Virus record (IMG/VR): IMGVR_UViG_3300021962_000035
Coordinates: 32,001 to 96,000 of that record
Direction: 5' to 3' (one strand)
Length of the DNA: 64,000 nucleotides
DNA from: a virus
Shown here: positions 7,477 through 27,326 of the stretch, piece by piece
How positions within the stretch are numbered: position 1 is the first letter of the stretch
Layout of the letters: every line of letters starts with the position of its first letter
Notes under the pieces: model-generated
What the model was told of the DNA's origin: nothing
The model's database searches: none
Seen by the model: only the letters and a program-made list of their open reading frames with translations
Program-made: the position numbers and the translations under genes

Positions 7477-7965
7477 ATGAAATACATCAAATCAATAAAC
7501 GAAGATTTCGGTGGCGAAAGTGGAGCATTTGGTGACACTTACGGTTACGGAGGAGCAAATGGGGTTTTAAAGATAAACTACAAGCCATTTAGCGATTTAT
7601 CGGTTTCCGTAGGTACTGATCCTAATATGAAGACTGATGTAAAGGGATCTGAATACAAAATAGGAGATGTTGTAATAGCTGAGCCTCTAGATTCCAAAAG
7701 CAAAGTTACAGGAGTAATAGTTAGATCTTTCAGAAAACCTGATAATATAGAGTTCAGATATTTTATCCAGGTTTATAACAAGGGTAAAAAAACTGAGAGA
7801 GTAATAGAGGTTAAATCAGACTCTATTAAGTTTGCTGAAGGTGGCGAACACGGAAATATGGCAACTGTAACTAAATACAAAAATAGCGAGATTGCAGACA
7901 AGAGCTATAATTCTAAGACAGTTTACAATTCATCCGAATTAGGCCTAGAAACAACTGGGGGCTAA
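7477..7965 (+). CDS. Hypothetical protein with capsid-targeting-like N-terminus, possible SH3/KOW-like barrel
   Basis: In-frame ATG7477 gives MKYIKSINE (track start 7447 overlaps the upstream gene); YKIGDVVIAEP...VTGVIV...RYFIQV. Confidence 0.6.
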   Translation: MKYIKSINEDFGGESGAFGDTYGYGGANGVLKINYKPFSDLSVSVGTDPNMKTDVKGSEYKIGDVVIAEPLDSKSKVTGVIVRSFRKPDNIEFRYFIQVYNKGKKTERVIEVKSDSIKFAEGGEHGNMATVTKYKNSEIADKSYNSKTVYNSSELGLETTGG

Positions 7966-7972
7966 TTTTACG

Positions 7973-8001
7973 GAAACTTAAAGACCTTTTATCAGTACAA
8001 T
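7973..8001 (+). promoter_or_regulatory. Putative middle-type promoter GAAAC-N18-TACAAT
   Basis: GAAAC 7973-7977, AAAGACCTTT 7980-7989, TACAAT 7996-8001. Near-identical architecture at 27338. Confidence 0.6.
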
Positions 8002-8016
8002 CTTAAAAAGGATTAG

Positions 8017-8919
8017 ATGATATCAGGACAAACTCCACCAAAAATATCTTATATAGGACCTCACACAGAATCTGGTGATTTGAGGTCTCAGATAAATTCA
8101 TACGAGGAGATGCTTTATGTCATTTTAAATAACATAAAGCTTAATATAGAAATCGACATAAAGATCACATGCATTGATGTATGTGATTTTTCATATTCGC
8201 CAAATTTCTTTAGAGAGGTTATAGAGGAGGAATCTGAAAAGATCTCTTCCATTATAGATGAGATAAATTCATTCATTGCTAAAAACGATGTAAAGATACT
8301 CTTTTCTGTTAATAGAGAATATTTTCTAGGCACCCAATTGGAAAACGTAAAGAGCTCAACACTAGCTCTCTTTTCTAGATTGTCTGAGATTCTTGACCTC
8401 ATAGGTGTAAACTATCCTTCTATAATGGTCAGGGTTGGCTCAGCATACGGGAATAGAAGAAATACTATGGATCTATTTTGTGAAAGACTTTCAGATCTGG
8501 ATCAGTGTGTTATAGACAAACTTTGTGTTATGAATGACGACAAGCCTAGCTTATTTTCTGTTACCGATCTTCTGTCCGGGATATACTACAAGGCAGGGAT
8601 ACCAATTTGCTTTAGACTTCTACCCCACCAATTTAACGACGGAGGATTGAGCATAAGAGAAGCTTTGTTTCTTTCCTGTTCTACCTGGAAGGCAGGACGG
8701 AAACCCTTCTTCATTCATTCAGAATCTTTAGAATGTGATGAAATTGGATACCCGCTCACTTCAAAGACTTCGGAATACCTTAAAAGTAGAATACCAACTT
8801 TCGGATTGGATATAGACGTGATAATAGATTCACCAGCAAGAGAGGATTCGTGTCTAAAATATAGAATGGATTATAGAGGACTTCCTCCTATAGTAATAAA
8901 CAAAAACCCTAAGAAATAA
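8017..8919 (+). CDS. UV-damage endonuclease (UvsE/UVDE)-like protein with degenerate active site
   Basis: VGSAYGN, NDDKPSLFSVTDL, GIPICF, STW..KPFFIHSES and PTFGLDIDVII follow the UvsE motif order, but metal-ligand His/Glu/Asp positions are substituted. Confidence 0.75.
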   Translation: MISGQTPPKISYIGPHTESGDLRSQINSYEEMLYVILNNIKLNIEIDIKITCIDVCDFSYSPNFFREVIEEESEKISSIIDEINSFIAKNDVKILFSVNREYFLGTQLENVKSSTLALFSRLSEILDLIGVNYPSIMVRVGSAYGNRRNTMDLFCERLSDLDQCVIDKLCVMNDDKPSLFSVTDLLSGIYYKAGIPICFRLLPHQFNDGGLSIREALFLSCSTWKAGRKPFFIHSESLECDEIGYPLTSKTSEYLKSRIPTFGLDIDVIIDSPAREDSCLKYRMDYRGLPPIVINKNPKK

Positions 8920-8942
8920 TTTTTTATTTCGCGATATTGTAT

Positions 8943-8950
8943 TATCTTTG
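8943..8950 (+). promoter_or_regulatory. Bacteroidota-type -7 element (TATCTTTG)
   Basis: TAnnTTTG 13 nt before ATG8964. Confidence 0.6.
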
Positions 8951-8963
8951 TAAAAAATAAGGA

Positions 8964-9708: not shown

Positions 9709-9716
9709 GATATATA
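9709..9716 (+). promoter_or_regulatory. Late-promoter-like motif GATATATA
   Basis: 17 nt before GTG9734. Confidence 0.6.
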
Positions 9717-10547: not shown

Positions 10548-13229
10548 ATGATAATACTTTTAGCAAAGGACGGTAAATATTCTATGGGAAATGACTTCCC
10601 GATATTTACTATTCCATTAGAAATGAAAGGTGCAACCAGTCAATCTTTAGAAGATTTTCAGTGGTGGGCTTACTCAAAAGACTTTAGAGAATGGCTTAAG
10701 AAAAATCCGAGAGAGTGGGTCGCAGATTCTGAGGATATGACCAAGTATGAAGATATTTCACAGATCATCAGAGAATCTAAAGGCGGGAGTGGTTATTCAT
10801 TAAACAAGGCAATCAGAGAGATAAACGAGTATATTGACCACGAAGAAAATAGAGTTTCTAATTTTTCAGACTTTTACTCTTCTGCAGTTTTTGAAGACGA
10901 TACAAAACAAAGTAATGCTAAAGAGGGAGAGGAAAAAGCGGTAAAACTGGCGTTCTCATATAATAAACTTCTATCTGACGGTAAGTTGGATAAGGAATAT
11001 TCCGTTATAGATCAAAAACCTGGTCAGGATAAAGCAGTATTTCTTTGTTTAGAGGATGCTGAATCAGGAGAAAATCTATTACAAACGATGGATGCCTACA
11101 AGATGGCTCCTATGGAGATTGAAAACCCTGATGCTAAATTTAGACTTTTTGAGATTAAGGATAGAATGATATCTGGACCTATACCAGACGATGCTACAGG
11201 TCCTAGTATAGCTCAAGAGGCTTTGAATAAAGGTCTTCAGTATGGAGTTTATGCAGTTGCTGCAGGAGGTATATTTGCTGGTATCAAATGGTTAGGTAGA
11301 GGCGTAGCTTTAAGACAGGCATATAAGGGACTCAAATTTTTAAGAACAGGTAAAGATGCAGCAGCAGCTGCTAGAGCGGCTAAAATCGCTAGAGACGGTA
11401 CTAGACTAGCAAGAGCTGGAAAGGGAATAAAAAGTCTTTGGGGATATGCTAGCCCGATGAAAGCTATTGCTTTCTGGGGAAGAATTGGTAAAGCTGGTAT
11501 AGAAGGAGCTAAACTTCAGAAAGCTCTTGGATCAATGGAGGGAGCAGGATTAGTTGCTAAGTCCGTTGGTATGGTTAAGGGATTCGTTACTGGTGCTAAA
11601 GCAGCAGCAGGAGCAACCAAAGCAGCAGAATGGACAAATCCTGTAGGTTGGGCACTTTTAGCTATAAATGCGATAGGTTCTACATGGAATTGGTATAGCG
11701 GTAATCAAGCACCTAGACTTGGTCAGGTGGAGGATTTTGCTAAAGATAGATTCGATCCTAAGGCTATAGATATAGGAGTTCCTATTACCATATGTTGGTC
11801 TCAGCCTGCTGGTGGATGGGGGATAGCAGTTTCTTTTCTCTGGAAAAATGAAACCAGAACCACTATGGAACTTATTAAGGTTGCTGAAAGAGGTGGTAAA
11901 TCAATATTCATATTGACCCAAATAAACGCTAAAGAAATTCAGAAACAAATAGCTGAATATGATATTACCCTTATAGCTTTTGATAATAGCGACGTGGTTG
12001 AGACCGGATTGATTGATAATGACGATCTTGATTTCGACATGTTTTGTAGTAAGCAAGATCTCAATTCTCTTTTCAACTATCAAGGATCTTGCGATTGGAG
12101 TTTGTTTGAGGATGAGTTCAATAATGCAAGCAGTAGTTTATTAATAAGCGATCCGAATGCACCAGATGAATACGAATTCCATTTTAGTGATTCTGAGGAC
12201 AACATAATAAATGTAGTGGGTAAAAAAGTTTCTACTGAAGATTTATCCAAATATTCTGAGGATGACTTAAATAGAATATTCGGTGTTACAATTTCAAAAG
12301 AGACCGAATCTAAAATAAAAGCTGGAGCTGAAAAAGCACCAGAGGAAACTGAGGAGCCTGAAGCAGAAACAGCTGAGGTTAGCGATAGCTTAAATCATGG
12401 ATGGGCTTCTGCTCTAAATGAATCTCAAGTTATAACAAGATTCTCTGATTTCAAAAAAGTAGCATATCAATTACACGAAGAAGAAGGAAACACTACAGCT
12501 AAGGGTAATCCAGAAGAGGGATCGGATGATGAGGATTCAAAATCTAGCAATATGCCAGCTTTAACCCCTGATCAGATGAGTGGACCTGCGGAGATTGCAA
12601 TATACCTTGTTACGGAGAGAGATTACGCAGATCCTAAATTAAGAGGAAAATATGAGACTGGAGAATTCACTAACTTTTTATTAGATCCTAAAGACTGGGA
12701 AGCTAGAAACGGGTCACCGGTAGACATTGATCCTAATACCGATGAAATCCTGGAGGATACCGTAAGAGGTCTTTACACTTATGTCGAGAAGAAGGAAGAG
12801 GACAAACCTATCGTAAAAGACGAAGTTCAGGACGCTGACGATTCGGATAAGGATGATAAAGAAGAAAAAGATAAGATAGAAGCTAAAAAGGATGACTATT
12901 ACATAACAGTTAGTCCTGAGGATGTTGAAATCAAGGACAGAAAAAGCTCAACAGTAATCAGAGATATGTCAATGGGGGGTGGAGTTAATTTATACGATAC
13001 CCTATTAACCTCGCAGGAAAAAGAAGCTTTAAAGATAGAAAACTGGAAGACTGTTACCTTCGCAAAAGAACTCCGTGACAACAAAGGGGATATCATAGAA
13101 GTTAAGTTTAAGAATAAATATGCTCCTTTTGGAGACAAGTCTAGAAAATATAGAGCAACAGATGGTGAAGCCTTTGAGATTGCTAAAAGATTCGTAGAAC
13201 AGACTAAGGACAGGATAAAGTACGAATAA
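10548..13229 (+). CDS. Large acidic hypothetical protein with central hydrophobic/amphipathic helices; candidate internal or ejection protein
   Basis: GVYAVAAGGIFAGIKWLG and NPVGWALLAINAIGSTW flank a long Ala/Gly/Lys-rich stretch; internal INE/LNE sites. Confidence 0.55.
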   Translation: MIILLAKDGKYSMGNDFPIFTIPLEMKGATSQSLEDFQWWAYSKDFREWLKKNPREWVADSEDMTKYEDISQIIRESKGGSGYSLNKAIREINEYIDHEENRVSNFSDFYSSAVFEDDTKQSNAKEGEEKAVKLAFSYNKLLSDGKLDKEYSVIDQKPGQDKAVFLCLEDAESGENLLQTMDAYKMAPMEIENPDAKFRLFEIKDRMISGPIPDDATGPSIAQEALNKGLQYGVYAVAAGGIFAGIKWLGRGVALRQAYKGLKFLRTGKDAAAAARAAKIARDGTRLARAGKGIKSLWGYASPMKAIAFWGRIGKAGIEGAKLQKALGSMEGAGLVAKSVGMVKGFVTGAKAAAGATKAAEWTNPVGWALLAINAIGSTWNWYSGNQAPRLGQVEDFAKDRFDPKAIDIGVPITICWSQPAGGWGIAVSFLWKNETRTTMELIKVAERGGKSIFILTQINAKEIQKQIAEYDITLIAFDNSDVVETGLIDNDDLDFDMFCSKQDLNSLFNYQGSCDWSLFEDEFNNASSSLLISDPNAPDEYEFHFSDSEDNIINVVGKKVSTEDLSKYSEDDLNRIFGVTISKETESKIKAGAEKAPEETEEPEAETAEVSDSLNHGWASALNESQVITRFSDFKKVAYQLHEEEGNTTAKGNPEEGSDDEDSKSSNMPALTPDQMSGPAEIAIYLVTERDYADPKLRGKYETGEFTNFLLDPKDWEARNGSPVDIDPNTDEILEDTVRGLYTYVEKKEEDKPIVKDEVQDADDSDKDDKEEKDKIEAKKDDYYITVSPEDVEIKDRKSSTVIRDMSMGGGVNLYDTLLTSQEKEALKIENWKTVTFAKELRDNKGDIIEVKFKNKYAPFGDKSRKYRATDGEAFEIAKRFVEQTKDRIKYE

Positions 13230-13289: not shown

Positions 13290-15251
13290 ATGCCACAACT
13301 ACAATCATTAAACGAAAATATGGTATTCATCCTTGAGAGACAGAATTCCATACTAGAAGCGAAAAAGTCAGAATCTGACGATTACGTTCTAGAAGGTATT
13401 GCTGCTGTTTTCGGACAAGAGAACAACAACAATAGAATATACGAGGAGAAGGAATATTTACCGCACCTTGAATATTTGAAGGATAAGATCTCACAGAATA
13501 GACTGGTTGGTGAATTAGATCACCCAGAGAAATTCGATGTGTCTCTTAAGAACATCTCTCACATCATAACAGATCTTAACTACGATAAAGGTAACAGAGA
13601 GCTTAAGATTAAGGTTAAACTTTTAGATACCCCAGCGGGTAGAATAGCTAAGAACTTAGTTGATGCTGGAGTTCCTCTTTCTATTTCTTCAAGAGCAGCT
13701 GGTTCAGTAGGTAATGATAAAAAGGTGGCAATTAAGAAAATTTTTACTTACGATCTAGTAGCTGATCCTGGATTTAAGGACGCACAACTTGAAAGAGTGT
13801 ATGAAAGCCAAGGGTTTACATCTCAAGAATTCGAAGCAATGAAAAATAATAGCATATTAAATAGCTTAGAATGCTTAAATGAATCTTTAGGTATCGAAAA
13901 AGAATCTTCACTTAAGATATATAAAGTTGAAAATAACGAAGAATTCAACAAAATCGTGAATAAATCAGATAATAAAAATAAATCAGTCCTTATGGAGAAC
14001 AATGAATTTGTTACTGCGGAGGAGCTTAATCAGTATTCAGTCTTCTTGAAAAAAGAGATGGATTCGATGAAAGCCGCTATCGCAGAGGCTAAAAATCAAA
14101 AAGCATCGCTAACTGAATCTGAAGATTTAAGTAAAGCTAATGAAGCTCTTGAAGAAAGAGTTGCTAAGCTTGAAAAATATTCAGAGTATTTAGCTGAGAA
14201 TCTAGAAAATTCTATTAAATACGGTGAGTATTTAGCAGAAAACTTGGACAGCACTATCAACTACAGTAAATATTTAGCAGAAAACTTAGACAAGAATATT
14301 TCTTATTCTAAGTACTTAGCTGAAAACGTAGATAAGTCTATCTCTTATTCCGAGTATGTTGCTGAAAGCGTTGACAAGAACATCGAGTACTCTAAATACT
14401 TAGCAGAAAAATTGGATCAAAATATTCAATACTCAGAGTACTTAGCAGAAAACGTAGATAAAGGAATCGCTTATTCTGAATATCTTGGAGAAAACTTAGA
14501 TAAAGGAATCGCTTATACTGAATACGTTGCTGAAAAACTAAACAACGGAATCGAATACACTGAATACGTTGCTGAGAATTTAAACAAGGGCATCGAGTAC
14601 TCTGACTATCTTGCAGAGAACTTAAATAAAGGATTAGACTATTCTGAGTATCTTGCAGAGAAATTAAACAGAGGAATTGCTTATAGCGAATACATCGCTG
14701 AGTCAGTTTCTACTAAAATTCCATCTAATGGTACTGGAGTATTAAAAGAGAGTGTAAATCTATCTGCAGAAGCAGGTCTTAATGAATCTGGCTTTGCTGG
14801 AAACTATGATAACCTAACTTCACAGATTGATTCATTAATAGAATCGGTTAAGACACAAAAAACCGCTTCAAACATCAACGAAGCTGCTAAAGCAGTAAAC
14901 CCAGCCGAAACACAGAAGGCTAACGAAACAGCTCTTAACGAGTCAGAGAACACAACTAAAACAGGTCTTAAGTTTATTGACGAAATGCCAGCAGAATATG
15001 CTCCGGTATGGGAATCTTTATCAGAAGGACACCAAGCATCTATTGTTGCTCAGTCACACTTCTATAATTTAGATACCCCTTATCAGATCAAAAATTTCTG
15101 GTCAACTCGTCAGCTTGGAGCTAAACCAGTTGGAGTACAAAAACTTGACGAGAGTGAAAATGTAGCCGAGACTGCAAAAACACAAGCATATTCTTCAGAT
15201 TACATGAATTATATCGCTTCTGCACTTGAGCAAAAATTTCAAAAAAGATAA
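13290..15251 (+). CDS. Prohead protease (gp21-like) fused to scaffold/core (gp22-like)
   Basis: LEGIAAVFGQENNNNRIY, GELDHP, SISSRAAGS, YDLVADPG protease motifs. C-terminal coiled-coil with YLAEN repeats; immediately upstream of the MCP. Confidence 0.9.
   Translation: MPQLQSLNENMVFILERQNSILEAKKSESDDYVLEGIAAVFGQENNNNRIYEEKEYLPHLEYLKDKISQNRLVGELDHPEKFDVSLKNISHIITDLNYDKGNRELKIKVKLLDTPAGRIAKNLVDAGVPLSISSRAAGSVGNDKKVAIKKIFTYDLVADPGFKDAQLERVYESQGFTSQEFEAMKNNSILNSLECLNESLGIEKESSLKIYKVENNEEFNKIVNKSDNKNKSVLMENNEFVTAEELNQYSVFLKKEMDSMKAAIAEAKNQKASLTESEDLSKANEALEERVAKLEKYSEYLAENLENSIKYGEYLAENLDSTINYSKYLAENLDKNISYSKYLAENVDKSISYSEYVAESVDKNIEYSKYLAEKLDQNIQYSEYLAENVDKGIAYSEYLGENLDKGIAYTEYVAEKLNNGIEYTEYVAENLNKGIEYSDYLAENLNKGLDYSEYLAEKLNRGIAYSEYIAESVSTKIPSNGTGVLKESVNLSAEAGLNESGFAGNYDNLTSQIDSLIESVKTQKTASNINEAAKAVNPAETQKANETALNESENTTKTGLKFIDEMPAEYAPVWESLSEGHQASIVAQSHFYNLDTPYQIKNFWSTRQLGAKPVGVQKLDESENVAETAKTQAYSSDYMNYIASALEQKFQKR
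14178..14705 (+). repeat. In-frame 42-bp (14-aa) tandem repeat, 12 full units plus 1 partial
   Basis: Consensus Y[ST]EY[LV]AENL[DN]KGI[AE], read directly from the translation. Confidence 0.95.
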
Positions 15252-15276: not shown

Positions 15277-17001
15277 ATGAAATTGATTAACGAACAAGAA
15301 ATCTATGAAACTTGGTCACCTCTTATCGAGAGCAAGGCTGGTATCACAGATGAAAGCAAAAAAGGTTGGTTGACTAAATATTGTCATTACCATTCATTAA
15401 ACGAGTCTGCTGGTGCATACAACTCATTAGGCGTTGTAAACGGTATGGGTACTGTAGCTCCTCCAGCATTCCCAGGCGCATCATTCGGTGGTGGCGCTGC
15501 TCTATCAACTGGCGCTAACGCTGGTTTCTACAACAACAGCTGGCAAGGTTCAGGAGATAAATTCCCTTCATTACTTCCATTAGCTATTCAGGTAGCTGCG
15601 AAGACTGTAGGTTTTGATATCGTTCCTGTTATCCCTATGTCAGGTCCAACTGGTATCTTATCTTACTTAGATTACGTATACGCAGGTGGTAAAGTTGCTG
15701 CTGCTGCTGCTTCTTCAGCTGCTGATCAGTTAGCTACTGCTCCTTCATTAATTAAATTCCCAGTTTACCAATCAGCAACTGGAACAGGTGTTACTGGTGC
15801 TACTGCTGGTACATTCACTGTAGGTGCTACTGCTTCTGTTGGTACTACTTTACTTTTAACTTTCGTAGGTCTATCAAGAATTGATGGTTACCCTATCTTC
15901 CAAGTTACTGGTTTAGCTTCAGGTTCTAACGTTGCTTCTTACATCAACGGTACTCCTGCACAAGTAGTTACTTCAGCAGGTGGTTCTGGTTTCTACACTG
16001 GAGCATCTTCAGTTAACTACGCTGCACAGCTAGTTAAAGCTTTAGAAGATCACATCCAAGGTTTCTCTGGTGCTGGTTTCAACAACGACCAAGCTTGGCA
16101 AGGTCCTTACGTTGATGGTACTAAAACTTACAACCCAATGTTAAGAGGTGTTGCTGAGTCTACTTACTACAACTCAATGGGTCTTTCAACTTTCACTAAA
16201 TTCGTAGAAGCTGAAACTTTCCAAGTTGCTGCATCAGTTACAACTGAGCAAATCCAAGACCTTAACAAACAATTCGGTATCGACGTTATTTCAATGATCG
16301 AGAACGCATTGGTTAACGAGGTTTCTCAAGCAATCAACAAGCACATCCTTTCAAGAACATTTGCTTTAGGTTGGTCTAACCACACTCAGTTCCTTAACAC
16401 TGAAAACCAAAACCTTAACTTGAACTTGATCATCGGTGGTGGTGCTGGTACTACAGCCGCTTACGTTAAGAAAGACGACACTACTCAAGCTATGACAATC
16501 CCTGCAGGTCCTGCATCAGGAGGTTATGAGAACTTATCAACTTTACAAAGAAGATTATTCTCAAGAATCCTTGCAGCTGCTAACGTGGTAGCTAACAGAG
16601 GTAGAAGAGGTCCTGCTAACTTCATCGTTACAAACGCTGCAGTTGCAAGTGCACTTCAAGATATCTCTCAGTTCACTTTCGCACCGTTCTCTAACACTTT
16701 AACTCAAAACAACGGTACTTTATACCCTGTAGGTTCGCTTGCTGGTATGACTGTATATGTTGATCAAAACATGAGCTACAATGATACAAGAGTTTGTATC
16801 GGTAGAAAAGGTGGAGACGACGAACCAGGTATCAAATTTATGCCTTACATGATGGCTGAATCTATTCAGACTATCTCTGAAGGTACAATGTCACCTAAAA
16901 TCGCAGTTAAATCAAGATACGCTCTAGTAGAAGCTGGTTTCTTACCAGAAACTATGTACTTGACATTCTATGTTAACGTACCTGCTGGTGGTTTAGCTTA
17001 A
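15277..17001 (+). CDS. Major capsid protein (T4 gp23-like)
   Basis: ETWSPLIE, IPMSGPTG, EAETFQV...TTEQIQDL, RRGPANFIVTN, GSLAGMTVYVD, KSRY. Followed by a strong terminator. Confidence 0.93.
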   Translation: MKLINEQEIYETWSPLIESKAGITDESKKGWLTKYCHYHSLNESAGAYNSLGVVNGMGTVAPPAFPGASFGGGAALSTGANAGFYNNSWQGSGDKFPSLLPLAIQVAAKTVGFDIVPVIPMSGPTGILSYLDYVYAGGKVAAAAASSAADQLATAPSLIKFPVYQSATGTGVTGATAGTFTVGATASVGTTLLLTFVGLSRIDGYPIFQVTGLASGSNVASYINGTPAQVVTSAGGSGFYTGASSVNYAAQLVKALEDHIQGFSGAGFNNDQAWQGPYVDGTKTYNPMLRGVAESTYYNSMGLSTFTKFVEAETFQVAASVTTEQIQDLNKQFGIDVISMIENALVNEVSQAINKHILSRTFALGWSNHTQFLNTENQNLNLNLIIGGGAGTTAAYVKKDDTTQAMTIPAGPASGGYENLSTLQRRLFSRILAAANVVANRGRRGPANFIVTNAAVASALQDISQFTFAPFSNTLTQNNGTLYPVGSLAGMTVYVDQNMSYNDTRVCIGRKGGDDEPGIKFMPYMMAESIQTISEGTMSPKIAVKSRYALVEAGFLPETMYLTFYVNVPAGGLA

Positions 17002-17118: not shown

Positions 17119-18261
17119 ATGAAGAATCTACCATCATTTAATGATTTCAAAAAATACGAGTATCTGATCGAAACTGCAAGTTCTGATCTTAGAGAAGAGT
17201 TCAACTCTTTAGAAACAGCAGAACCTAATCACACAGTAAATGAGGGAATTTTTGGGGATTACATCAAAAATTCACTTTCTAAATTTTTCTTAGGATCATT
17301 ATCTAGCGTTGGCATGATAGACAAGGCTAGAAAGATCTTGGTTGAACTTGAAATAGACGGGATCGAAAAAAGAGCAGCCTTTGAGGAGTCTGTTGATAAA
17401 CTAGAATCCCAAATAGATGGTTTAAGCTCTATAAACGATAAGGAAAGAATAACTGCATTAGAAAGGGATAGAGATTCAAAGATTAAGGAGTTCGAATCTT
17501 TCCTTAAATCTAATTCACTTAAGATTAAAAAAGCAAAGGATTTCATAACAAAAGCCATAGACAACAATACAAGAAGAAGAGAGTATTATGAAGCGGGAAG
17601 AGCAGACGATGAAATCGCTTTAGCTGAGCTTGAATATCAAATGGCTAAAGATAAAGCTGATGCAGAGGAGATTAAGAAATTTGAGGAAAGAATAATGAAG
17701 AAAAAGAAAGAGGCGGAGGAAAAAGCTCAAGATCTTAAGGATAAAATGGAGGATGACGAGAAATCTAAGAATCCTGAAAATGTTGAAGATTTATCAGTGG
17801 ATCCGGAGGCTGAAAAGAAGAAAGTTTCTAGCAGAAAAGCTAAGGATATAATAGAGAGAAAGAAAGATCTTGAGAAAGAAATTGCTGATCTAAAAGCGGA
17901 TATGGAAAGAAAAATTAATGTTTTGGAAAAGAGACTTAAATCCAATCCAGACAAGGTTAGTAAATCATATATTGAAAAAAGCAGAATAGAGTTACTTGAA
18001 ATTAGCTCAGCTTTAGATGCTAAGAGAAACCTCCTTAGATTGTTCAGAAACTTGGGCAAAACCGAAGGGGATATAGAGAAAAAGCTAAGTAAAGAGCAAG
18101 AGTTTACCCAGCTAGCTAATTTAATAAATCAGGGAATAGTTGATGGCGAGGATGCTAATTCAGGAACTAAGAAAATAATTTCTGATATTTTTGTTACATC
18201 TACCGGTACTATCGATCTTGGTAAATTGAGATCAGCAAAGAATAAACTAAACGACGAATAA
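17119..18261 (+). CDS. Coiled-coil putative internal head protein, paralogue of 18261..19190
   Basis: N-terminus MKNLPSFNDFKKYEYLIE...VNE; highly charged helical body. Confidence 0.6.
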   Translation: MKNLPSFNDFKKYEYLIETASSDLREEFNSLETAEPNHTVNEGIFGDYIKNSLSKFFLGSLSSVGMIDKARKILVELEIDGIEKRAAFEESVDKLESQIDGLSSINDKERITALERDRDSKIKEFESFLKSNSLKIKKAKDFITKAIDNNTRRREYYEAGRADDEIALAELEYQMAKDKADAEEIKKFEERIMKKKKEAEEKAQDLKDKMEDDEKSKNPENVEDLSVDPEAEKKKVSSRKAKDIIERKKDLEKEIADLKADMERKINVLEKRLKSNPDKVSKSYIEKSRIELLEISSALDAKRNLLRLFRNLGKTEGDIEKKLSKEQEFTQLANLINQGIVDGEDANSGTKKIISDIFVTSTGTIDLGKLRSAKNKLNDE

Positions 18262-19190
18262 TGACTTTAAAATTTAAAGATTGGAACAGCTTAAATGAAG
18301 CTGGCTTATTCGATCAGATTAAAAACTGGTTGAGCAGTACTTTTGGAGGGAGTATAGATGCACTTGATAAATTAGCCAACGAGTACAGATCAGCAGAACT
18401 TGAGTATGTTGAAAAGTGGGAAGATATCAATGTGGAGATCGATAAATTAGATCTCGAAAGATCCCAGACTAAAAGTGATCCCGCAGAGATTAAAAGAATA
18501 GACAGACTTATACAAAGAAATCATGAGCTGATGAATGCTCAGTCAAGATCTCACGAGAAAAAGACTGAAAGCATATTCGTTAAAGTTAGAGACGTTATCG
18601 GAGAAAATAAAAGAATTCGTTTCTATTGGGAAAAGCTGAAGACCAAGGTTGATGCTGACATCGCAGAGGAGATGTACAAAAGAGCTAAGAATTTAGCTGA
18701 TTCTTCACTTTCCGGATCTTTATATGCTAAATATAAAGCTGCTGTATTAAGAGCTAAACAGAAAGACACTGATTTCAGAAACAGATACGGTAACCTCATG
18801 ACTAAGGACATTGAGAATGCTGAAAGATTCAAAAAAGAAAAAATCACCAGAACAAGATCTGAAAGTGGAGAATCCGAAGCAGGAGGTGGCACAGATGCTT
18901 CTTTTGAATTTCTTTCGAAGTTACCTTTAGTAGATTTTACTAATGCAGTAAAAGATCTTTCGTCTAAGCAAGCTAAAAGCCTAGTTTCATTTCTTTTAAA
19001 AGAGAGAAATGACAGATACGTTGCAATGGATATGGAAAGAGATATTCTGAACAAAGAAGTTGAGAACGCAGAAAACAAGGATAAAGCTAGAGAATTCGCT
19101 TCTCAAAAAATTAAGGAGATCAGAGAGAAATATATGGACGAGATCAGAGATCTTAGATCTAAAATAACAATAGCAAGAAAATATGCTTAA
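18261..19190 (+). CDS. Coiled-coil putative internal head protein
   Basis: N-terminus MTLKFKDWNSLNE; IGENKRIRFYWE...AEEMYKRAKNLAD aligns with IDNNTRRREYYE...AELEYQMAKDKAD of the upstream gene. Confidence 0.6.
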   Translation: MTLKFKDWNSLNEAGLFDQIKNWLSSTFGGSIDALDKLANEYRSAELEYVEKWEDINVEIDKLDLERSQTKSDPAEIKRIDRLIQRNHELMNAQSRSHEKKTESIFVKVRDVIGENKRIRFYWEKLKTKVDADIAEEMYKRAKNLADSSLSGSLYAKYKAAVLRAKQKDTDFRNRYGNLMTKDIENAERFKKEKITRTRSESGESEAGGGTDASFEFLSKLPLVDFTNAVKDLSSKQAKSLVSFLLKERNDRYVAMDMERDILNKEVENAENKDKAREFASQKIKEIREKYMDEIRDLRSKITIARKYA

Positions 19191-19443
19191 GTTTAAGGAA
19201 TTTCTGATAAAAGAAGCTGATAGCGATAAGACAAAAGTTCAGGAGATTAAAACCAACATTTCCCAGAAATTTGACGAGATAAAAGGGGCTAAAGATTCCA
19301 AGAAAAAGGGTGACTTTAATTCTGAAATTGCTAGCATAAATAAGCAAGCTTCGATATACCAGGAAATCTCTGTTTTACTCAAATCACTTTCTGCAGAAAT
19401 GCAGAAATCTGAAGCGGAAGGAACTAAAGACAATATATACTAA
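19183..19443 (+). CDS. Small putative internal head protein
   Basis: N-terminus MLKFKEFLIKE resembles the T4 capsid-targeting sequence MKTYQEFIAE. Confidence 0.6.
   Translation: MLKFKEFLIKEADSDKTKVQEIKTNISQKFDEIKGAKDSKKKGDFNSEIASINKQASIYQEISVLLKSLSAEMQKSEAEGTKDNIY
19432..19439 (+). promoter_or_regulatory. Late-promoter-like motif AATATATA
   Basis: At the end of the upstream CDS, 14 nt before ATG19454. Confidence 0.35.
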
Positions 19444-19453
19444 AATTCAAATT

Positions 19454-21940
19454 ATGAATAACAATCCATACATTTACAATCCGGTAGCGAAGACCTTATT
19501 AGAGGAATATCACACAAGACTTTTAGAAAATGAGCAGGTTGATTCTTTGCTTGTTAAAGTCTGCGATAATGCTTTAAATGCTTTTAAGATATTAACATTC
19601 GATTTAGCCCCAAAGAGAGATAGAAATCCTGATGTTATTAGACTTAAACTTTCAGATGTTGCAGATTCTAAAACTGTAAAATCATTAACCGCAAAATTAA
19701 TAGATTATGCGGATGACAATGATTTGCTGGATTCTAGATTTGCTGAAACGAAAAGACTTTATTTAGACAGTCTTAAAAAATTCTGTGAGGCTTTAGATAG
19801 AGCATCGGAGATTTCTAAGTCTAAGGATGATGTTGTATTTAAGCAGTTTAAATTGTCTGCTACTAAGCTTCAAAATTCCATAGATAATATAGCTAAGCAA
19901 GCAGAGGATGAAGCTAAAAAACTAAACGATAGTGAAGGATTTGAATATGGAGATACCTTAAATGAATCTATCTTTACCGGATATAAAAACAGGGTTGAGA
20001 ATCTTAGAAAAAATCTTACCAACCTAATTAGTTCGTCAGAAGGCAAGGATCAAAAATCTGGATACGGTAAAGACTGGAAAAGAATTTTTCTGGATTTCGA
20101 TGAGCAAAGAAAGATATTAGATAACACCGAAGGTGGGGATAGAAATAGAAAGTCTTTAGAGGATCTCGAAAAAAAGGTAGAGAAAGCTCAGGAAGAATTC
20201 TATAATTCTATGATCCAAACAGCAAATAGAACTTTACAGAAGTTAGAAGATGACGAGGAAGTTTACACAACTTACTCGGACGTTACTAATTTGGTTAACC
20301 AAGCATTGGATCTAATGACTAGAGCTAAGACACAATACGGATTAGCTGTTAGAATAATAAAAGACGAAAACGAAGCAAAAGAAGTCGAAACAGCTAAGGC
20401 AGTATTTCCTCTTAAAAGAGGAGACACCGATTCTGACAGAAAGATTAAAGGAAGTGGATTGATCTTTGCCATCCAAACCGCTCTTTGTAATGGTATACCT
20501 TCGGCTGGTAAATTGATAAAATCTAAAGGAGGTCCAAATGGTAAATACGGTCCAGCAACGACTTCCGTTATTGCTACTATTCAAAAGTTAAGCGGCAATA
20601 AGAACGCTAATGGACAAATAGATCAAACTCTTTTAAAAGATATCATTTCTTCTGATTGGGTTTCCGCTAAGGATAAAAAAGCAATACAAACGGCTTTAAA
20701 TACTATAGGATCTAAAATGAACGAAAGCGTTTTCGCTTCCGGCCACGTGAAGAGTATATCTGAAATGTTTTCCCCTGTTTATGAAGGAAAAATCGTTATA
20801 AACAATTCTGAATTTGAAAAAGAACTACAAGTTCAGTATAAGGCAAATTCAGTTATTTCTCATTCTTCAGGCAAGGAAGGTGAATCATCTCATTCAGGGG
20901 GAAAATCTTCTTCAGGAGTTCGCTCTTTAGCTAAAAAGCTTAGACAGAATTATAATATAAAGGTGGAGTCTGACGATTTCGTTAAACAGGACGGATCTCT
21001 TAAATCTTCTTATAATACAGAATTCATAAAAGATTGGAATGCAGCTTTAGATAAAGCGAGTCCTGCTGAGGAATTCTCTTACTTCTTTGCAAATGGAGCA
21101 GTTTATAACATCAATCTAGCTTCGTCTTCTTTAAAAACTCCTTGTAACTGGACTAAGTGGGCAGAGACCAGACAGATTAAAACATTGGGTAATGAAGATG
21201 CAACCGAATTCCTTAGAAACTATCTTAAAGGCTGGACAACTTTTGGTATGATCCGACCTGAATGGAGATACGAAGGGATTAAGTCATTGCTTAAAAAGAA
21301 TTCTAATAATAACAGTTTGGATTTACATGGTCCTTTCGAAATGATGGAATCTTCTATAAAGAACAAAGAGATCCCTTTTGTTGATTATGACAATCTTAAG
21401 GGTGATATAGCTAGAGCATTTAATATAGCTCTACAAAAAAGCGATAAGAGACCTGATTTAGGTAAAGAGGAATTCGTTGCAATCAACAATTTCCTTATAA
21501 TGATAGCTAACTGTGTTACTTTCGACGGAAGTAAATTCATAAGCTGTATAAAATGGATCAACGATAACGTTTTAGGAGCTTCTACAGCTAAGAGAATCAC
21601 GGAAGATCAAGTATTCTTTGAAAATGGTCTTAATGATTCGACTGGACAAATTTTAACTTACGAAGGATCAAAAATCATCTCTGGTGATTATGATGCCATC
21701 AAGAGAAGAAAAACCACATCGAAAAGGCAGATGTCTTCTGCACTTGACGGAATAGGTATTCTCGCTGGAATGAGAGGATCTGGAAGTGACACAAAAATAA
21801 TCCTAGGTAACAATTGCTATTATATAGCTGCTGATGTATATCCTAGCATAGCAACACACGTTAAGAGGATGAATGCTACGGAATTTGGCGATGTGCCTCA
21901 ACAAGCACCTTTTAAATGCGTCAACACAGACACTAAATAA
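19454..21940 (+). CDS. Large helical protein with a central peptidoglycan-binding (PG_binding_1-like) domain
   Basis: PLKRGD...IFAIQTAL...NGKYGPATTSVIATIQKLSG...NGQID (about 20405-20636); LNES/MNES sites. Confidence 0.65.
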   Translation: MNNNPYIYNPVAKTLLEEYHTRLLENEQVDSLLVKVCDNALNAFKILTFDLAPKRDRNPDVIRLKLSDVADSKTVKSLTAKLIDYADDNDLLDSRFAETKRLYLDSLKKFCEALDRASEISKSKDDVVFKQFKLSATKLQNSIDNIAKQAEDEAKKLNDSEGFEYGDTLNESIFTGYKNRVENLRKNLTNLISSSEGKDQKSGYGKDWKRIFLDFDEQRKILDNTEGGDRNRKSLEDLEKKVEKAQEEFYNSMIQTANRTLQKLEDDEEVYTTYSDVTNLVNQALDLMTRAKTQYGLAVRIIKDENEAKEVETAKAVFPLKRGDTDSDRKIKGSGLIFAIQTALCNGIPSAGKLIKSKGGPNGKYGPATTSVIATIQKLSGNKNANGQIDQTLLKDIISSDWVSAKDKKAIQTALNTIGSKMNESVFASGHVKSISEMFSPVYEGKIVINNSEFEKELQVQYKANSVISHSSGKEGESSHSGGKSSSGVRSLAKKLRQNYNIKVESDDFVKQDGSLKSSYNTEFIKDWNAALDKASPAEEFSYFFANGAVYNINLASSSLKTPCNWTKWAETRQIKTLGNEDATEFLRNYLKGWTTFGMIRPEWRYEGIKSLLKKNSNNNSLDLHGPFEMMESSIKNKEIPFVDYDNLKGDIARAFNIALQKSDKRPDLGKEEFVAINNFLIMIANCVTFDGSKFISCIKWINDNVLGASTAKRITEDQVFFENGLNDSTGQILTYEGSKIISGDYDAIKRRKTTSKRQMSSALDGIGILAGMRGSGSDTKIILGNNCYYIAADVYPSIATHVKRMNATEFGDVPQQAPFKCVNTDTK

Positions 21941-22048: not shown

Positions 22049-22609
22049 ATGGTATACGTATTCGAAGGCCCCAGAAATTCAGGCAAGACATTTTTATCCG
22101 GGTTCGTCTCGGACTCCTTTAATATACCGAGATTCCAGTTTAAATTTGCAAACTTTTTTAAAGATCTAAATTTAAAAAGTGTGGATAGCAAGGAAGCACA
22201 TGCATTCTCTCTAGGAAAAGAGTTTATGCTTATGCAGCTGGCTAAGGATCTTGAACATGAGTCTTTTATTCACGACAGAGGAATATTGACAGTTTTGGTT
22301 TGGGGATTACTTGAGGGTAGAATCACGGAAGATGAAGCTAGAGATCAGATAGAAATATTGAAGAAGTATTCTTTGTTGGATCAAATAACAATAATCTACA
22401 TTCAGGGCAATAACCCAGATAAGTCTGATAGAGATAAGGATCAATGGGATCATATCGATGGTGATCCTAGAGAAAGAGAAACCTACGTAAAGGTGATATC
22501 AATGTTCCAAGAAGCTGGTCTCGATAGAATATGGGTATTTATAAACGGATTTGATGATCAATCAGTGAGCAACATGGGTTCAATGTTTGAAGATATACTT
22601 TTTAATTAA
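22049..22609 (+). CDS. P-loop nucleoside-monophosphate kinase (thymidylate/dNMP kinase-like)
   Basis: MVYVFEGPRNSGKT P-loop and FIHDRG (DR motif). Start moved to ATG22049. Confidence 0.75.
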   Translation: MVYVFEGPRNSGKTFLSGFVSDSFNIPRFQFKFANFFKDLNLKSVDSKEAHAFSLGKEFMLMQLAKDLEHESFIHDRGILTVLVWGLLEGRITEDEARDQIEILKKYSLLDQITIIYIQGNNPDKSDRDKDQWDHIDGDPRERETYVKVISMFQEAGLDRIWVFINGFDDQSVSNMGSMFEDILFN

Positions 22610-22613
22610 AAAT

Positions 22614-24071: not shown

Positions 24072-24743
24072 ATGTCCAAAATTATTAAAGATTTCGATTC
24101 TTTTTCCGACGATAGAGTAAATGAGGAATTTTCTTGGGAGGGAGTAGGTAACTTCTTCACCGGATTATTCGGTTTTGCCGGAGAGGGTCTTAGAAAAACT
24201 ATAAAGCAAAAGGTTGCTGCTAAATTAATGGAGCAATTAGGGGTTAAGGAAAACTCCAATATGTCCGCTATAGTACAGGAAGTTATAGATCAAATTCCAG
24301 TAAGCGATTATCCAAAATTATTAACCGGAGAAAACGCTAATGTCGAATACCTTGCACCTATTTTAGCAAAATCCCTCCAGGAATTTATCCAGAGAAAAGG
24401 ATTTGACAGTTTAGCTGAACAAATGGGAATAGAACCTAATGGATGGCTTTACTCAACCCTAAGAGAGGGTTTACAATCAGAAAGAGGCAGAGCAATTATA
24501 GAAAATGCCTTAATCGAAGCATTCGGCGGTCCAAATGCAAAAGGTTCTGTTGGTAGAGATGCTATATCTGCTTTGGATTCTAGCGATAAAAAAGAGTTAG
24601 TTGACGCAGCTAGAAATAAGGCTTCTCAGATTTATGGTAAGCCAAATACAGTATCCCAGTCAGGTCAAAGCAAAGGAGCGATGGATTACATTTCAACTTT
24701 CTGGAACTCTCTAATGGGAGACGATAAAGCTCAAACAACTTAA
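24072..24743 (+). CDS. Putative internal head protein
   Basis: MSKIIKDFDSFSDDRVNE followed by amphipathic FSWEGVGNFFTGLFGF. Confidence 0.55.
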   Translation: MSKIIKDFDSFSDDRVNEEFSWEGVGNFFTGLFGFAGEGLRKTIKQKVAAKLMEQLGVKENSNMSAIVQEVIDQIPVSDYPKLLTGENANVEYLAPILAKSLQEFIQRKGFDSLAEQMGIEPNGWLYSTLREGLQSERGRAIIENALIEAFGGPNAKGSVGRDAISALDSSDKKELVDAARNKASQIYGKPNTVSQSGQSKGAMDYISTFWNSLMGDDKAQTT

Positions 24744-24753: not shown

Positions 24754-25098
24754 ATGAACGTACAAAACGTAGCTCAAAGAGAATTACTGGACTTCAACCA
24801 GTTTCTTAAAAAAGTGCATGATAACGATTATAAGCCTTTATCACCAGCAAATCAATCTGAAGGAGGCTTAGAAAAATCTGGTCAATCACACATAAAAAGA
24901 GAACCTAGATATGACTATGCAGGATATGCAGATGCTGTTTTTGGACACCAATCTAAAATAGATGCTCCTGGATATAGAATAGATATCAACGGTAAGCCGG
25001 GTATGATGGACGTAGGTGGAATCGGTAACATTTCTAATATGGGCACTAACGAGTCTTTAAATAATGATTCATTTATTAAAAGATTAAGTGATTTTTAA
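24754..25098 (+). CDS. Hypothetical protein, possible internal head protein
   Basis: LLDFNQFLKK near the N-terminus and FIKRLSDF at the C-terminus, both resembling the tag. Confidence 0.5.
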   Translation: MNVQNVAQRELLDFNQFLKKVHDNDYKPLSPANQSEGGLEKSGQSHIKREPRYDYAGYADAVFGHQSKIDAPGYRIDINGKPGMMDVGGIGNISNMGTNESLNNDSFIKRLSDF

Positions 25099-25150: not shown

Positions 25151-25879
25151 TTATGTTCCTATTTGTTCAATAAATTTTTCCTTTGCTAACTTATAGATCT
25201 CAGAATTTTCTTCGAAGTTTTCGTAGATCTCTATAACATAGAATTTAGGTGAATATTTGGTGTCCGCCTTTATCTCATTTAGTATCTCGTGGTAGATGTA
25301 CTCGTAATTAAGAGAAAAGAATGAGTTTTTTAAATGGATCTTCTTCATTATAGAAACCTCCTTTTCACCCTCTGCAGTTTCCATTTTCACGTTAGACTTA
25401 AAAAAATAATTCAGTAGCTTATCAGTAACCATATTTCTGATTATAACTATTCCTGAATTTTCTACAGGATTATGGGTACTAAACTTGGATTGGATTTTAA
25501 AGATCTTTATCTTTGATTCCTCTTCTTTAAGTATTTCTAAACAAACCTCCGAATATTCATATAGCGTTTGTAGTGAATCTTCTATTATGGAATCCAGGGT
25601 TTCTTTTTGATCCGAGCTTAGACCGTCATATTCAAAAGAATCCAGATAATCACTGTCTTCCTTTTTTAGAGATTTTACTAAGGATTGTGATAGCGACTTA
25701 TCCCTCCTAAAATCATTCAGTATCCTGACTATTCTCGATATCTCCCTTAGTATCGAATAGCAGTTATCCTTATTTAGATCCTTGCTTGTCTCTTTTAGGT
25801 AATCTAATAAGACGTATTCTTTGTGCTCCGAGTCTAATGGCTCTTTTAAGAACCATATAGGACTTATACCCTTTGACAT
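25151..25879 (-). CDS. Hypothetical protein
   Basis: 242-aa ORF filling the gap, with its own upstream AATATATA motif and a downstream terminator. Confidence 0.75.
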   Translation of the reverse strand: MSKGISPIWFLKEPLDSEHKEYVLLDYLKETSKDLNKDNCYSILREISRIVRILNDFRRDKSLSQSLVKSLKKEDSDYLDSFEYDGLSSDQKETLDSIIEDSLQTLYEYSEVCLEILKEEESKIKIFKIQSKFSTHNPVENSGIVIIRNMVTDKLLNYFFKSNVKMETAEGEKEVSIMKKIHLKNSFFSLNYEYIYHEILNEIKADTKYSPKFYVIEIYENFEENSEIYKLAKEKFIEQIGT

Positions 25880-25908
25880 CCCTATGTTATTTAGTTAATA
25901 TACATAAT

Positions 25909-25916
25909 TATATATT
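25909..25916 (-). promoter_or_regulatory. Late-promoter-like motif AATATATA (minus strand)
   Basis: 29 nt before the start of 25151..25879. Confidence 0.45.
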
Positions 25917-25940
25917 CTCTTCCGTAAAAAATAAAAAATG

Positions 25941-25948
25941 GATATATA
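25941..25948 (+). promoter_or_regulatory. Late-promoter-like motif GATATATA
   Basis: 18 nt before GTG25967. Confidence 0.6.
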
Positions 25949-25966
25949 GAAGAAAAACCTAACAAA

Positions 25967-26410
25967 GTGGGAAGAATTTACGATTATTCTGCGTATAGCG
26001 CATCCAAAAAAGGAGGATCCAGAGGTGACTATTCCTTCGGAAGCGAGCTAAAGTATTCTGAGATAGACTTGTTTAATAGACCCGAAGAATATGCAGACCT
26101 AGATGATGCTAAAGCTTTTATAGAGTATAGCATAGATCTGATAGTAAAAAAATCTGGTATAGATGACTTTATATTTAATATAGATTCAATAGAACTAGAA
26201 TTTAAGATTGATGATTACCCTAACGATCCTAAAGAATTTGATATTGATTTAATTCCTGGTAAAACTATAGATTACAGCCAACTTAATGCGGAAAAGCTTT
26301 CTTCTATTATACCTACCTACCCGAATAATTTATCCATAGACATGAATAAATCTACGGACCCTAAGAATTTTAAAATTACCGCTTCCTTCGGAAGCGATTA
26401 TGTTGACTAA
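25967..26410 (+). CDS. Acidic hypothetical protein
   Basis: 147-aa ORF; N-terminal RIYDYSAY weakly resembles the tag. Confidence 0.65.
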   Translation: MGRIYDYSAYSASKKGGSRGDYSFGSELKYSEIDLFNRPEEYADLDDAKAFIEYSIDLIVKKSGIDDFIFNIDSIELEFKIDDYPNDPKEFDIDLIPGKTIDYSQLNAEKLSSIIPTYPNNLSIDMNKSTDPKNFKITASFGSDYVD

Positions 26411-27326
26411 TATGGTACTCGGATTTAATGATTATCAGAGATCCAAAATAAACGAGAGCGGATCTTATGCTGTCCCCGGAATAAAGGATTCTTGGGGGAG
26501 TGGATATGTGATCTCCGTTGTAGATGCAACCGACGGAAAGGAACAGCCAAAAGATAAGATAATCATACCAAAGAAGAATGAAAAATCTATAGCTTTATGC
26601 TACGTAGACAATGACGGAAATCAGTCTGAGTATGTGTGGATACCTATGGATGCTTGTTCAATGAAAAAATCCGATGTCGACGAAATAACTGAGATCCATC
26701 TGGATCCATACAAAAAGTGGATAACTTCAAGCGTGAATAAATCTAAGGTTGATGATTTAATTGAAGATTTTGCAGATCATTTGGAGACATCAAAAACCAC
26801 AGGGCAAGAAAGAATAAAACAAAATGCACAAGATGATGTAGAATTGCTAATGGATCTGATAGGTATACCTGGGTCCATAGAATCTTTCGAATCCTGCGGT
26901 GATTATATTTGGGATGCTAAACTGGACAACGGTATGTTGATCGAAATAACTAAAAGAAGCAAGGACGATCTTTTATCTAAATTTAAAATATATCTAAATG
27001 CTAGCGATCACCATCCTTGTGTTTACATAAATAACGATTCATTAGATAAGAAAACCTCATTCAAAATACCTGATATGAATGTAATCACCGTTCCCAAGGG
27101 ATTTACTGAGGTAAAGAATCCTGATCCTTACATAAAGTACCTTACCAGAAGATCTATGGATATCCACACTCCATCTGATCAAGAGTCCCTTTTCAAACAC
27201 TTCCAGAACTTAATATCATCAGGTTCAGGGGACAAGGAATTATTGAAAGATATAGTTTCTCTGCTTTCCGAATTTATGGATAAAAGAGATGTTGAAGAAG
27301 CATCGGGAAGCATTAATCAAGAATAA
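26400..27326 (+). CDS. Hypothetical protein, possible internal head protein
   Basis: Alternative ATG26412 gives MVLGFNDYQRSKINE. Confidence 0.65.
   Translation: MLTNMVLGFNDYQRSKINESGSYAVPGIKDSWGSGYVISVVDATDGKEQPKDKIIIPKKNEKSIALCYVDNDGNQSEYVWIPMDACSMKKSDVDEITEIHLDPYKKWITSSVNKSKVDDLIEDFADHLETSKTTGQERIKQNAQDDVELLMDLIGIPGSIESFESCGDYIWDAKLDNGMLIEITKRSKDDLLSKFKIYLNASDHHPCVYINNDSLDKKTSFKIPDMNVITVPKGFTEVKNPDPYIKYLTRRSMDIHTPSDQESLFKHFQNLISSGSGDKELLKDIVSLLSEFMDKRDVEEASGSINQE

Follow-up and report, generated by a model that had tools for sequence, protein, structure and literature searches.

The capsid-targeting sequence (CTS) of phage T4 is the textbook peptide for loading foreign proteins into a capsid, forms the basis of the T4 delivery vectors and has hitherto been regarded as a feature of the internal proteins of T-even phages. 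We describe here a set of CTS-like tags on proteins encoded in the head module of a T4-related myophage, found in a stretch of DNA from IMG/VR record IMGVR_UViG_3300021962_000035; the window that was analysed comprises 64,000 nucleotides (nt), bases 32001-96000 of one virus contig of 121,823 bp (36% GC), with the head module at positions 7477-27326 of the window. The tags are quite likely to be capsid-targeting propeptides of the T4 type that are used on a far larger scale than in T4. In T4 the CTS is carried by IPI, IPII and IPIII, which are internal proteins, and by Alt, and is removed by the prohead protease gp21 (Mullaney and Black 1996; reviewed in PMC9026906). The first 10 residues of IPIII suffice for targeting, in which residues 4 and 7 act, and processing requires residues 8 and 10 (PMC9026906). 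In the T4 genome the sequence MKTYQEFIAE starts two genes (of 193 and 100 amino acids (aa)), and the major capsid protein (MCP) gp23 is cut at FGSFLTE/A (the slash marks the cut).

Two other groups of described phages are relevant. The phages phiKZ, 201phi2-1 and SPN3US resemble the phage described here in being jumbo myophages with many head-internal proteins; in phiKZ-type phages a gp21-related protease (gp175 or gp245) cuts after Glu and N-terminal propeptides are believed to bring proteins into the prohead (PMC5694885, PMC10052503). In the giant phages characterized to date the cut follows A/S/G-x-E and the propeptides are mostly long, 111-254 residues in the phiKZ type, without a short common consensus; in SPN3US about 80% of the head proteins remain uncut. 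The Tenacibaculum phage PTm1 (with a "prohead core scaffolding protein and protease") and the Flavobacterium phage MaF61 (with a "prohead scaffold") resemble our contig in that protease and scaffold are fused, with [LIVM]-N-E sites in large number, and that the gp23-type MCP is related (30-33% identity), but have neither the repeat array described below nor an enrichment of tags. We found no published description of CTS-like tags in huge or Bacteroidota-type phages.

The system found here resembles that of T4 in several respects: an N-terminal leader of 10-20 residues is present on unrelated proteins, hydrophobic or aromatic residues stand three apart with [LI]-x-E and then a small residue after them, and the tags occur together with an MCP of the gp23 type that has a propeptide, a protease of family S77 and carriers that vary among relatives; the carriers may also be expressed late, as in T4. 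Unlike T4, with its handful of carriers, there are about 12 in the 122-kb fragment and 35-50 in complete relatives. The spacing between the predicted docking element and the cut site is variable and the residue at P2 is mostly Asn (P1 being the Glu before the predicted cut), two large proteins have internal cassettes flanked by cut sites for which T4 offers no precedent, and the protease is fused to a scaffold with a repeat array. The tag code is the same as in T4, and what differs is the larger repertoire, the internal cassettes and the protease fused to a repeat scaffold.

The contig has its genes almost throughout on the + strand, with a T4-type portal upstream of the head module and baseplate hub and wedge genes downstream. 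Its nearest deposited phages are the Lak megaphages, the LR7565xx huge phages, PTm1 and MaF61 (MCP identity 30-44%), and IMG/VR holds 250 MCP relatives with 72-92% identity on contigs reaching 434 kb, one of which is a record of 348,582 bp that is 100% complete according to CheckV. These relatives indicate that the contig is a piece of a jumbo phage related to T4, with a genome of about 350 kb, that belongs to a large uncultured clade. For the analysis of conservation, 1319 open reading frames (ORFs), taken from the contig itself and from 80 related loci, were clustered, and four genomes (the complete 348-kb relative, LR756500, PTm1 and MaF61) were compared beside the contig.

To avoid a motif defined after the fact, the tag was defined a priori from T4 genetics (PMC9026906) as two aromatic residues at positions i and i+3, the first at residue 3-10, followed within 9 residues by [LIVM]-x-E. 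Nine of the 108 ORFs in the contig match this definition at their first start codon, and 12 do so when alternative starts are allowed, whereas 1.3 are expected from shuffled N-termini (maximum 6 in 2000 shuffles) and 1.9 from the rate at internal positions (binomial p = 1.2e-4). In the tagged leaders the aromatic pair (compare T4 residues 4 and 7) precedes [LI]-x-E (compare residues 8 and 10), so that both genetically defined parts of the CTS, targeting and processing, are matched. The likeness to the T4 CTS on which the initial annotation was built therefore holds, and the N-termini that it listed were all found where it had placed them. Apart from the pair 17119/18261 (E 1e-9; genes are named by their start position in the window) the carriers are mutually unrelated in an all-against-all BLASTP comparison. 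The proposed number of about ten unrelated tagged proteins is borne out by the 9-12 ORFs, with this one paralogous pair, but 24754 lacks a cut site and 7477 lacks the aromatic pair. In the same scan no tag was found on the baseplate and tail ORFs downstream or on the replication enzymes upstream in the contig. Two matches were set aside as chance: that of a deoxynucleoside monophosphate (dNMP) kinase (MVYVFE/GPRNSGK), a false positive because the predicted cut would fall inside the P-loop fold, and that of an RNA-ligase/cytidylyltransferase fusion outside the window (genome 116054-118081; L004:11054-13081), which ends in VNE directly before the lysine of KMDG. The orthologue of the latter in the 348-kb relative is not among the tagged ORFs, and a functional tag is doubted.

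The tag was also found in other genomes. Of the 451 ORFs in the complete 348-kb relative, 35 have the tag at their first start codon (7.5 would be expected; p 1.2e-13), and the number rises to 51 if alternative starts are admitted. The consensus in this genome is M-K-x-[ILV]-[LK]-x-[FY]-x-x-[FYW]-x(0-9)-[LIV]-N-E, followed by S/A/G, and it includes features that lie beyond the search pattern, namely an aliphatic residue at -3 from the first aromatic (33 of 43 tags), Asn at P2 (20 of 51) and S/A/G at P1' (28 of 51). The leaders measure 9-25 residues, and L, I or V stands at P3 in 49 of the 51 tags. LR756500 (462 kb, 24% GC, MCP 44% identical) has 39 tagged ORFs against 11 expected (p 2e-11), with the near-uniform consensus MKYIKEYEEFI(N/L)E (MKYIKEYEEFINE), the core of which (Y-E-E-F-I-x-E) matches the Y-Q-E-F-I-A-E of T4 at 5 of 7 positions. 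LR756500 (L127-L151) also has tandem arrays of up to 8 consecutive tagged ORFs, all with MKYI(K/L)EYEEF starts (e.g. 312960-318055 and 12212-15898), which look like expanding paralogue or cassette arrays.

Within the carrier families the pattern is held in 60-100% of the members while residues drift and linker length changes. It was found in 74 of 76 members of the MCP family, in all 31 orthologues of 19183, in 46 of 57 orthologues of the nucleotidyltransferase-fold protein (9734), in 97 of the 128 members of the joint 17119/18261 family and, with a strict regular expression, in 28 of 47 orthologues of 24072, most of the others fitting by eye. Neighbouring control families are tagged in 0-7% of their members (exonuclease 2/57, UvdE-like 0/55, AsnB-like 0/53, dNMP kinase 4/54). 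Because the P1 Glu is near-invariant in the 9734 family while the remaining tag positions vary, selection is indicated to act on the peptide pattern and not on a nucleotide element. Carrier genes are gained and lost among close relatives, and 26412 is confined to close relatives. Extra tagged genes were observed in two related loci, one of 622 aa (MDKAINFKDFSNSNVSE...) directly after the MCP gene (L081:11798-13666) and one of 156 aa (MNRTKHIAQFESFRE...) ahead of the nucleotidyltransferase-fold gene (L008:3739-4209), which points to turnover of tagged genes.

Gene 13290 had been taken for the scaffold gene. A scaffold is indeed present, but the gene begins with a gp21-type S77 protease, hence it encodes a fusion. 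The product matches Pfam Peptidase_S77 (PF03420) with 33.5 bits (cut-off 27) and phrog_207 (4e-36), and its protease domain spans residues ~32-175 (13383-13814). A phmmer search of the protease against PDB gave no match, and T4 gp21 was reached solely via profile search and hhalign, the profile of ten orthologues aligning with gp21 at a probability of 92.5% (E 5e-7). H78 (in GELDHP) and S134 (in ISSRAAG), both invariant across the 10 orthologues, align to the His and Ser of gp21 that were replaced by Ala in the inactive crystal form (PDB 5JBL). The N-terminus of the protease contains the conserved candidate sites LNE9, ILE16 and ILE23, with LIE9 as the counterpart in T4 gp21. In LR756500 a second short ORF that matches the prohead protease domain (W01:C1:154846-155151, - strand, 135 aa, E 1.3e-20) lies far from the head module and recalls the diverged protease paralogue of SPN3US-like phages.

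The scaffold part contains tandem repeats with the unit Y-[ST]-[EK]-Y-[LVI]-A-E-[NK]-[LV]-[DN]-K-x-I-x (YSEYLAE...; period 42 in Tandem Repeats Finder). Each repeat has the form aromatic-x-x-aromatic-[LIV]-x-E, like the T4 CTS core YQEFIAE and like the cut site of T4 gp23 (FGSFLTE/A), and thus holds the cut-site pattern. Y1, Y4 and E7 are essentially invariant over 818 repeat units, and the copy number is 10-14 (mode 13) across 63 orthologues. AlphaFold2 modelled an excerpt with the array as one continuous helix of about 218 residues (residues 2-219), with a predicted local distance difference test (pLDDT) score of 73 for the best model and poor scores for the other four. The scaffold of LR756500 has a degenerate form of the repeat, and a Y-x-x-Y-L-A-E repeat array is absent from the scaffolds of T4 (gp22), PTm1 and MaF61.

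The MCP aligns to T4 gp23 from residue 5 onward. Its candidate cut sites LINE6, LIE18 and SLNE43 are conserved among the 44 distinct N-termini of 76 orthologues, so that the INE and SLNE43 sites noted in the initial annotation are present and conserved. The internal copies of the tag that had been noted in the 893-aa and 828-aa proteins are likewise real and conserved. In the 893-aa protein 54 of 57 orthologues hold a tag-like motif in both zones, and the [LIVM]-x-E just before the second cassette is also kept in 29 orthologues; the protein is probably cut into three pieces. For the 828-aa protein all 48 orthologues have LNE171 and 45 of the 48 have the VYE444 site, and some orthologues have clearer cassettes (e.g. 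STVFSFDDF...INE). Both proteins are probably processed to several pieces.

The octamer GATATATA occurs 22 times in the contig, 22 times on the + strand and 0 times on the - strand, mostly 26-39 nt ahead of start codons. It precedes the portal, protease-scaffold and baseplate-region genes and heads the units of 9734, of the 893-aa protein, of 17119-19454, of 24072 and of 25967/26412, so the carriers sit mostly behind it, as had been noted before. In the 348-kb relative 23 of the 51 tagged genes but just 35 of the 400 without a tag have it within 70 nt upstream (odds ratio 8.6, p 7e-10). The late promoter of T4 is TATAAATA, which we take GATATATA to resemble, and the motif may well be a late promoter. 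In G001 (L096-L114) and in the window GATATATA lies either 12-15 nt or 22-40 nt ahead of the start codon, and the shorter of these two classes of distance would leave nearly no 5' leader.

Based on these observations, the prohead core would assemble around a serine protease of the gp21 type that has a long helical scaffold as its fusion partner, and the proteins of the head interior would bear a short two-part propeptide, N-terminal or, in two cases, internal. The docking element [ILV]-x-x-[FY]-x-x-[FWY] would present one hydrophobic face of a short helix, as the counterpart of T4 CTS residues 4 and 7, and the cut site 0-9 residues further on ([LIV]-(N)-E, then a small residue) would be the counterpart of residues 8 and 10. 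After closure of the shell the protease would cleave off the tags, trim its own N-terminus and the MCP (the latter after E43), and cut the scaffold after each of the 13 [LVI]-A-E repeats, yielding 14-mers able to exit the head. We infer from the sequences that the tags direct proteins to the prohead and that the sites are cut; the tagged proteins, enzymes included, are probably packed into the capsid.

A further proposal, which we consider possible but on balance doubtful, is that the tag imitates the scaffold repeat in a single copy. Along a helix of about 30 nm the fusion would expose, in register, 13 units of the form aromatic-x-x-aromatic-[LIV]-x-E, cargo would dock by offering one such unit, either N-terminally or within a polyprotein, and the fused protease would cut scaffold and cargo at the same sites. 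The idea is attractive because tag and repeat share the same pattern and because, in the four genomes compared, the repeat is present only in those with tags (two tagged genomes with the repeat, two untagged genomes without it).

Several observations weigh against these readings. The 35-50 tagged proteins, about 10% of the genes, lie far above the number in T4, the carriers include housekeeping-type enzymes like adenylate kinase for which a use in the capsid is not obvious, and the spacing from docking element to cut site varies, in contrast to T4. Both 7477 and 24754 depart from the consensus. The clade is without a cultured representative, its nearest phage records having at most 44% MCP identity. 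No enrichment of tags was observed in PTm1 (4 against 4.9 expected) or MaF61 (0 against 2.7 expected), yet both have related protease-scaffold fusions; the tag is therefore, by these scans, not general among Bacteroidota-type T4-like phages. Finally, a strict profile made from 309 distinct scaffold repeats did not rank tagged N-termini above internal windows, because the tags favour Phe and the repeats Tyr, and so the argument for mimicry is the shared pattern itself.

The fate of the carriers is a separate question. The initial annotation pictured an injected kit with an enzyme, membrane-active helices and a cell-wall binder, a picture that is supported only in part. An enzyme carrier is present (9734, with its nucleotidyltransferase fold), and tagged cell-wall enzymes do occur outside the window: the contig encodes a CHAP peptidase elsewhere, and in the 348-kb relative tags are found on PG_binding_1, SLT and CHAP proteins, as well as on a GDPD protein, an LRR protein and an adenylate kinase (3e-40). 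The tags precede folded domains, the ADK domain starting at residue 27 and the CHAP domain at residue 73. The membrane-active helices, however, find no support because no 19-residue window reaches a hydropathy of 1.6 in any carrier (no segment of transmembrane strength). Nor does 24754 have a cut site, and the highly charged products of 17119, 18261 and 19183, the genes of which adjoin that of the MCP, look more like prohead core or scaffold parts destined for degradation than like effectors. These three carriers, which follow directly after the MCP and have several internal [LIV]-x-E sites, raise the alternative that all leaders are propeptides of assembly factors alone, and that the carriers are degraded and expelled with nothing retained or injected; the scaffold itself holds 13 sites, and T4 gp22, gp67 and gp68 are fragmented and mostly expelled (PMC9026906). 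Many carriers, nevertheless, are enzymes (nucleotidyltransferase fold, CHAP, SLT, GDPD, adenylate kinase) in which the catalytic motifs are intact and internal sites are few, and carrier genes turn over among close relatives in the way of the T4 ip genes, which makes this alternative improbable for the set as a whole. Under targeting of the T4 type, the enzyme carriers may stay inside the head and reach the host together with the DNA, as we infer from the precedent of T4 (the internal proteins and Alt) and from the ejection proteins of giant phages (PMC5694885, PMC10052503).

With about 10% of the proteome tagged, including nucleotide and nucleic-acid enzymes, the N-terminal motif could also be a signal that has nothing to do with the capsid, recognized by a chaperone or directing proteins to a membrane-bound assembly site or an intracellular phage compartment, in which case the terminal [LIV]-x-E would be coincidental or meant for another protease. 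In this respect the N-terminus of T4 gp23 reportedly directs proteins to GroEL, a claim ascribed to Snyder and Tarkowski in 2005. Such a signal would hardly be expected to recur, in the same two parts, in the propeptide of the MCP, at the N-terminus of the protease and in the scaffold repeats, nor to keep a near-invariant P1 Glu and a core with 5 of 7 matches to the experimentally tested T4 CTS, and one cytoplasmic address for cell-wall and nucleotide enzymes is hard to explain; we consider this explanation quite remote. A compositional or annotation artefact is very improbable: in a genome of 36% GC, AT-rich N-termini do favour K, N, I, F and Y, a motif may be defined post hoc and a loose regular expression is just about 2-fold enriched near N-termini, but the a-priori definition lies 5-7 fold above shuffles of the same N-termini, was reproduced in two more genomes (p 1e-11 to 1e-13), is missing in PTm1 with its 30% GC and is conserved in orthologues despite amino-acid changes. 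Head maturation of the phiKZ-like (S80) type, with small-x-E sites and long propeptides, does not fit the P3 residue (L/I/V in 49 of 51 tags) or the leaders of 9-25 residues; unlike the phiKZ type the leaders are short and have one consensus, and the Pfam S80 match of the protease (22.9 bits) is under the cut-off of 23.4.

The positions of the features are listed in Table 1. The nucleotidyltransferase-fold protein 9734 matches phrog_36119 (4.5e-39) and Pfam NTP_transf_2 (1.5e-4) and has an intact GS...DxD motif (G82-S83...D94-x-D96), conserved in the family. Its AlphaFold2 model (pLDDT 77) shows the tag as an N-terminal appendage of low confidence, and a Foldseek search with this model returned nucleotidyltransferases exclusively, though weakly (E ~3e-3, template-modelling score 0.2-0.27), with no subfamily assignable. 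An upstream TTG sits on the GATATATA motif itself; the GTG start is found in most of the clade (orthologues in L005-L084) and not in the contig alone. For 7477, 55 orthologues keep MK[YH]IK[ST]I[NY]E (one variant has LDE) and many begin exactly there. This leader corresponds to the first five residues plus the cut site of the full consensus and is a probable variant of the tag that lacks the aromatic pair. The start sites of 7477 and 26412 are backed by orthologues that have no upstream start; those of 26412 have no upstream ATG and retain M[VI]LGF[NK]D[FY]Q...INE. In the 19183 family residues 4 and 7 are the aromatic ones, matching T4 IPIII. In the 24754 family LDFxxF is kept, Asp often takes the place of the nearby Glu and none of the 46 orthologues meets the tag definition; because a conserved cut site is lacking, this N-terminus is, judged by its orthologues, not a canonical tag. 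A few relatives of 25967 have an additional MKRINE/G leader. Searches of PHROG and Pfam gave no match for 7477, 17119, 18261, 19183, 24072, 24754, 25967, 26412 and the 893-aa and 828-aa proteins, and ESM Atlas searches with the middle of the 893-aa protein and with 24072 were uninformative.

Table 1. Features of the head module, with positions in the window (residue numbers refer to the encoded protein)
Feature	Position	Strand	Basis or remark
162-aa protein, leader MKYIKSINE (7477-7503)	7477..7965	+	leader ends in conserved [IL]-[NY]-E
Putative late-promoter motif GATATATA	9709..9716	+	25 nt ahead of the GTG start of 9734
Further copies of GATATATA	10476, 13254, 17085, 24044, 25941	+	motif scan
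Pol-beta-type nucleotidyltransferase-fold protein, 268 aa	9734..10540	+	phrog_36119, Pfam NTP_transf_2
Tag of 9734, 18 aa, (M)GSVLSYKKFINASPILE	9734-9787	+	predicted cut follows
893-aa head-module protein, two internal cassettes	10548..13229	+	tag-like motifs in orthologues
893-aa protein, cassette 1	residues 92-116 (10821-10895)	+	tag-like motif
893-aa protein, cassette 2, LNE/SQVITRFSDFKKVAYQLHE/	residues 623-644 (12414-12479)	+	tag-like motif flanked by sites
Prohead protease-scaffold fusion, 653 aa	13290..15251	+	Peptidase_S77, phrog_207, gp21 by hhalign
Scaffold repeat array	14178..14723	+	13 tandem 14-residue repeats in C-terminal half of protease fusion
gp23-type MCP	15277..17001	+	Pfam Gp23 PF07068, 7.8e-39
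Predicted MCP propeptide	15277-15405	+	ends at SLNE43
380-aa highly charged protein, probable prohead core/scaffold protein, tag MKNLPSFNDFKKYEYLIE (17119-17172), second site VNE41	17119..18261	+	both conserved in orthologues
309-aa protein, tag MTLKFKDWNSLNE (18261-18299)	18261..19190	+	orthologues MTLKFKEW..LNE; paralogue of 17119
86-aa protein, tag MLKFKEFLIKE (19183-19215)	19183..19443	+	orthologue tags
828-aa protein, site LNE171 (19958-19966), cassette MNE424...VYE444 (20717-20785)	19454..21940	+	orthologue conservation
223-aa protein, tag MSKIIKDFDSFSDDRVNE (24072-24125)	24072..24743	+	orthologue tags, late motif at 24044
114-aa protein, LDFNQF at residues 12-17, doubtful member	24754..25098	+	conserved motif, no conserved cut site
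147-aa acidic protein, (M)GRIYDYSAY start, possible member	25967..26410	+	aromatic motif, no cut site
304-aa acidic protein, tag MVLGFNDYQRSKINE (26412-26456), accessory gene	26412..27326	+	6 related loci

Among the head-cargo genes the window also has, at 22004-24017, two untagged genes, one dNMP-kinase-like and one for an AsnB-type amidotransferase, both kept in more than 50 relatives. A gene for a protein of 242 aa without a family match (25151-25879, - strand) is kept in 43 related loci; it is the sole minus-strand gene within the head module, and the contig has few others.

The two-part code of T4 thus appears to be used in distant, environmentally widespread jumbo phages, in which about one gene in ten would be tagged. 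Recognition of the tag offers a route from sequence alone to the head-internal, probably injected, proteomes of uncultured phages. The internal, seemingly excisable tags of the 893-aa and 828-aa proteins point to a polyprotein form of loading, and the repeat scaffold fused to the protease is a concrete candidate for the binding partner of the CTS. If the tag does mimic the scaffold repeat, about 10% of the proteome in a widespread clade of jumbo phages would be loaded by a packaging code that is simple, portable and limited by stoichiometry, and this would also account for what the CTS of T4 binds.

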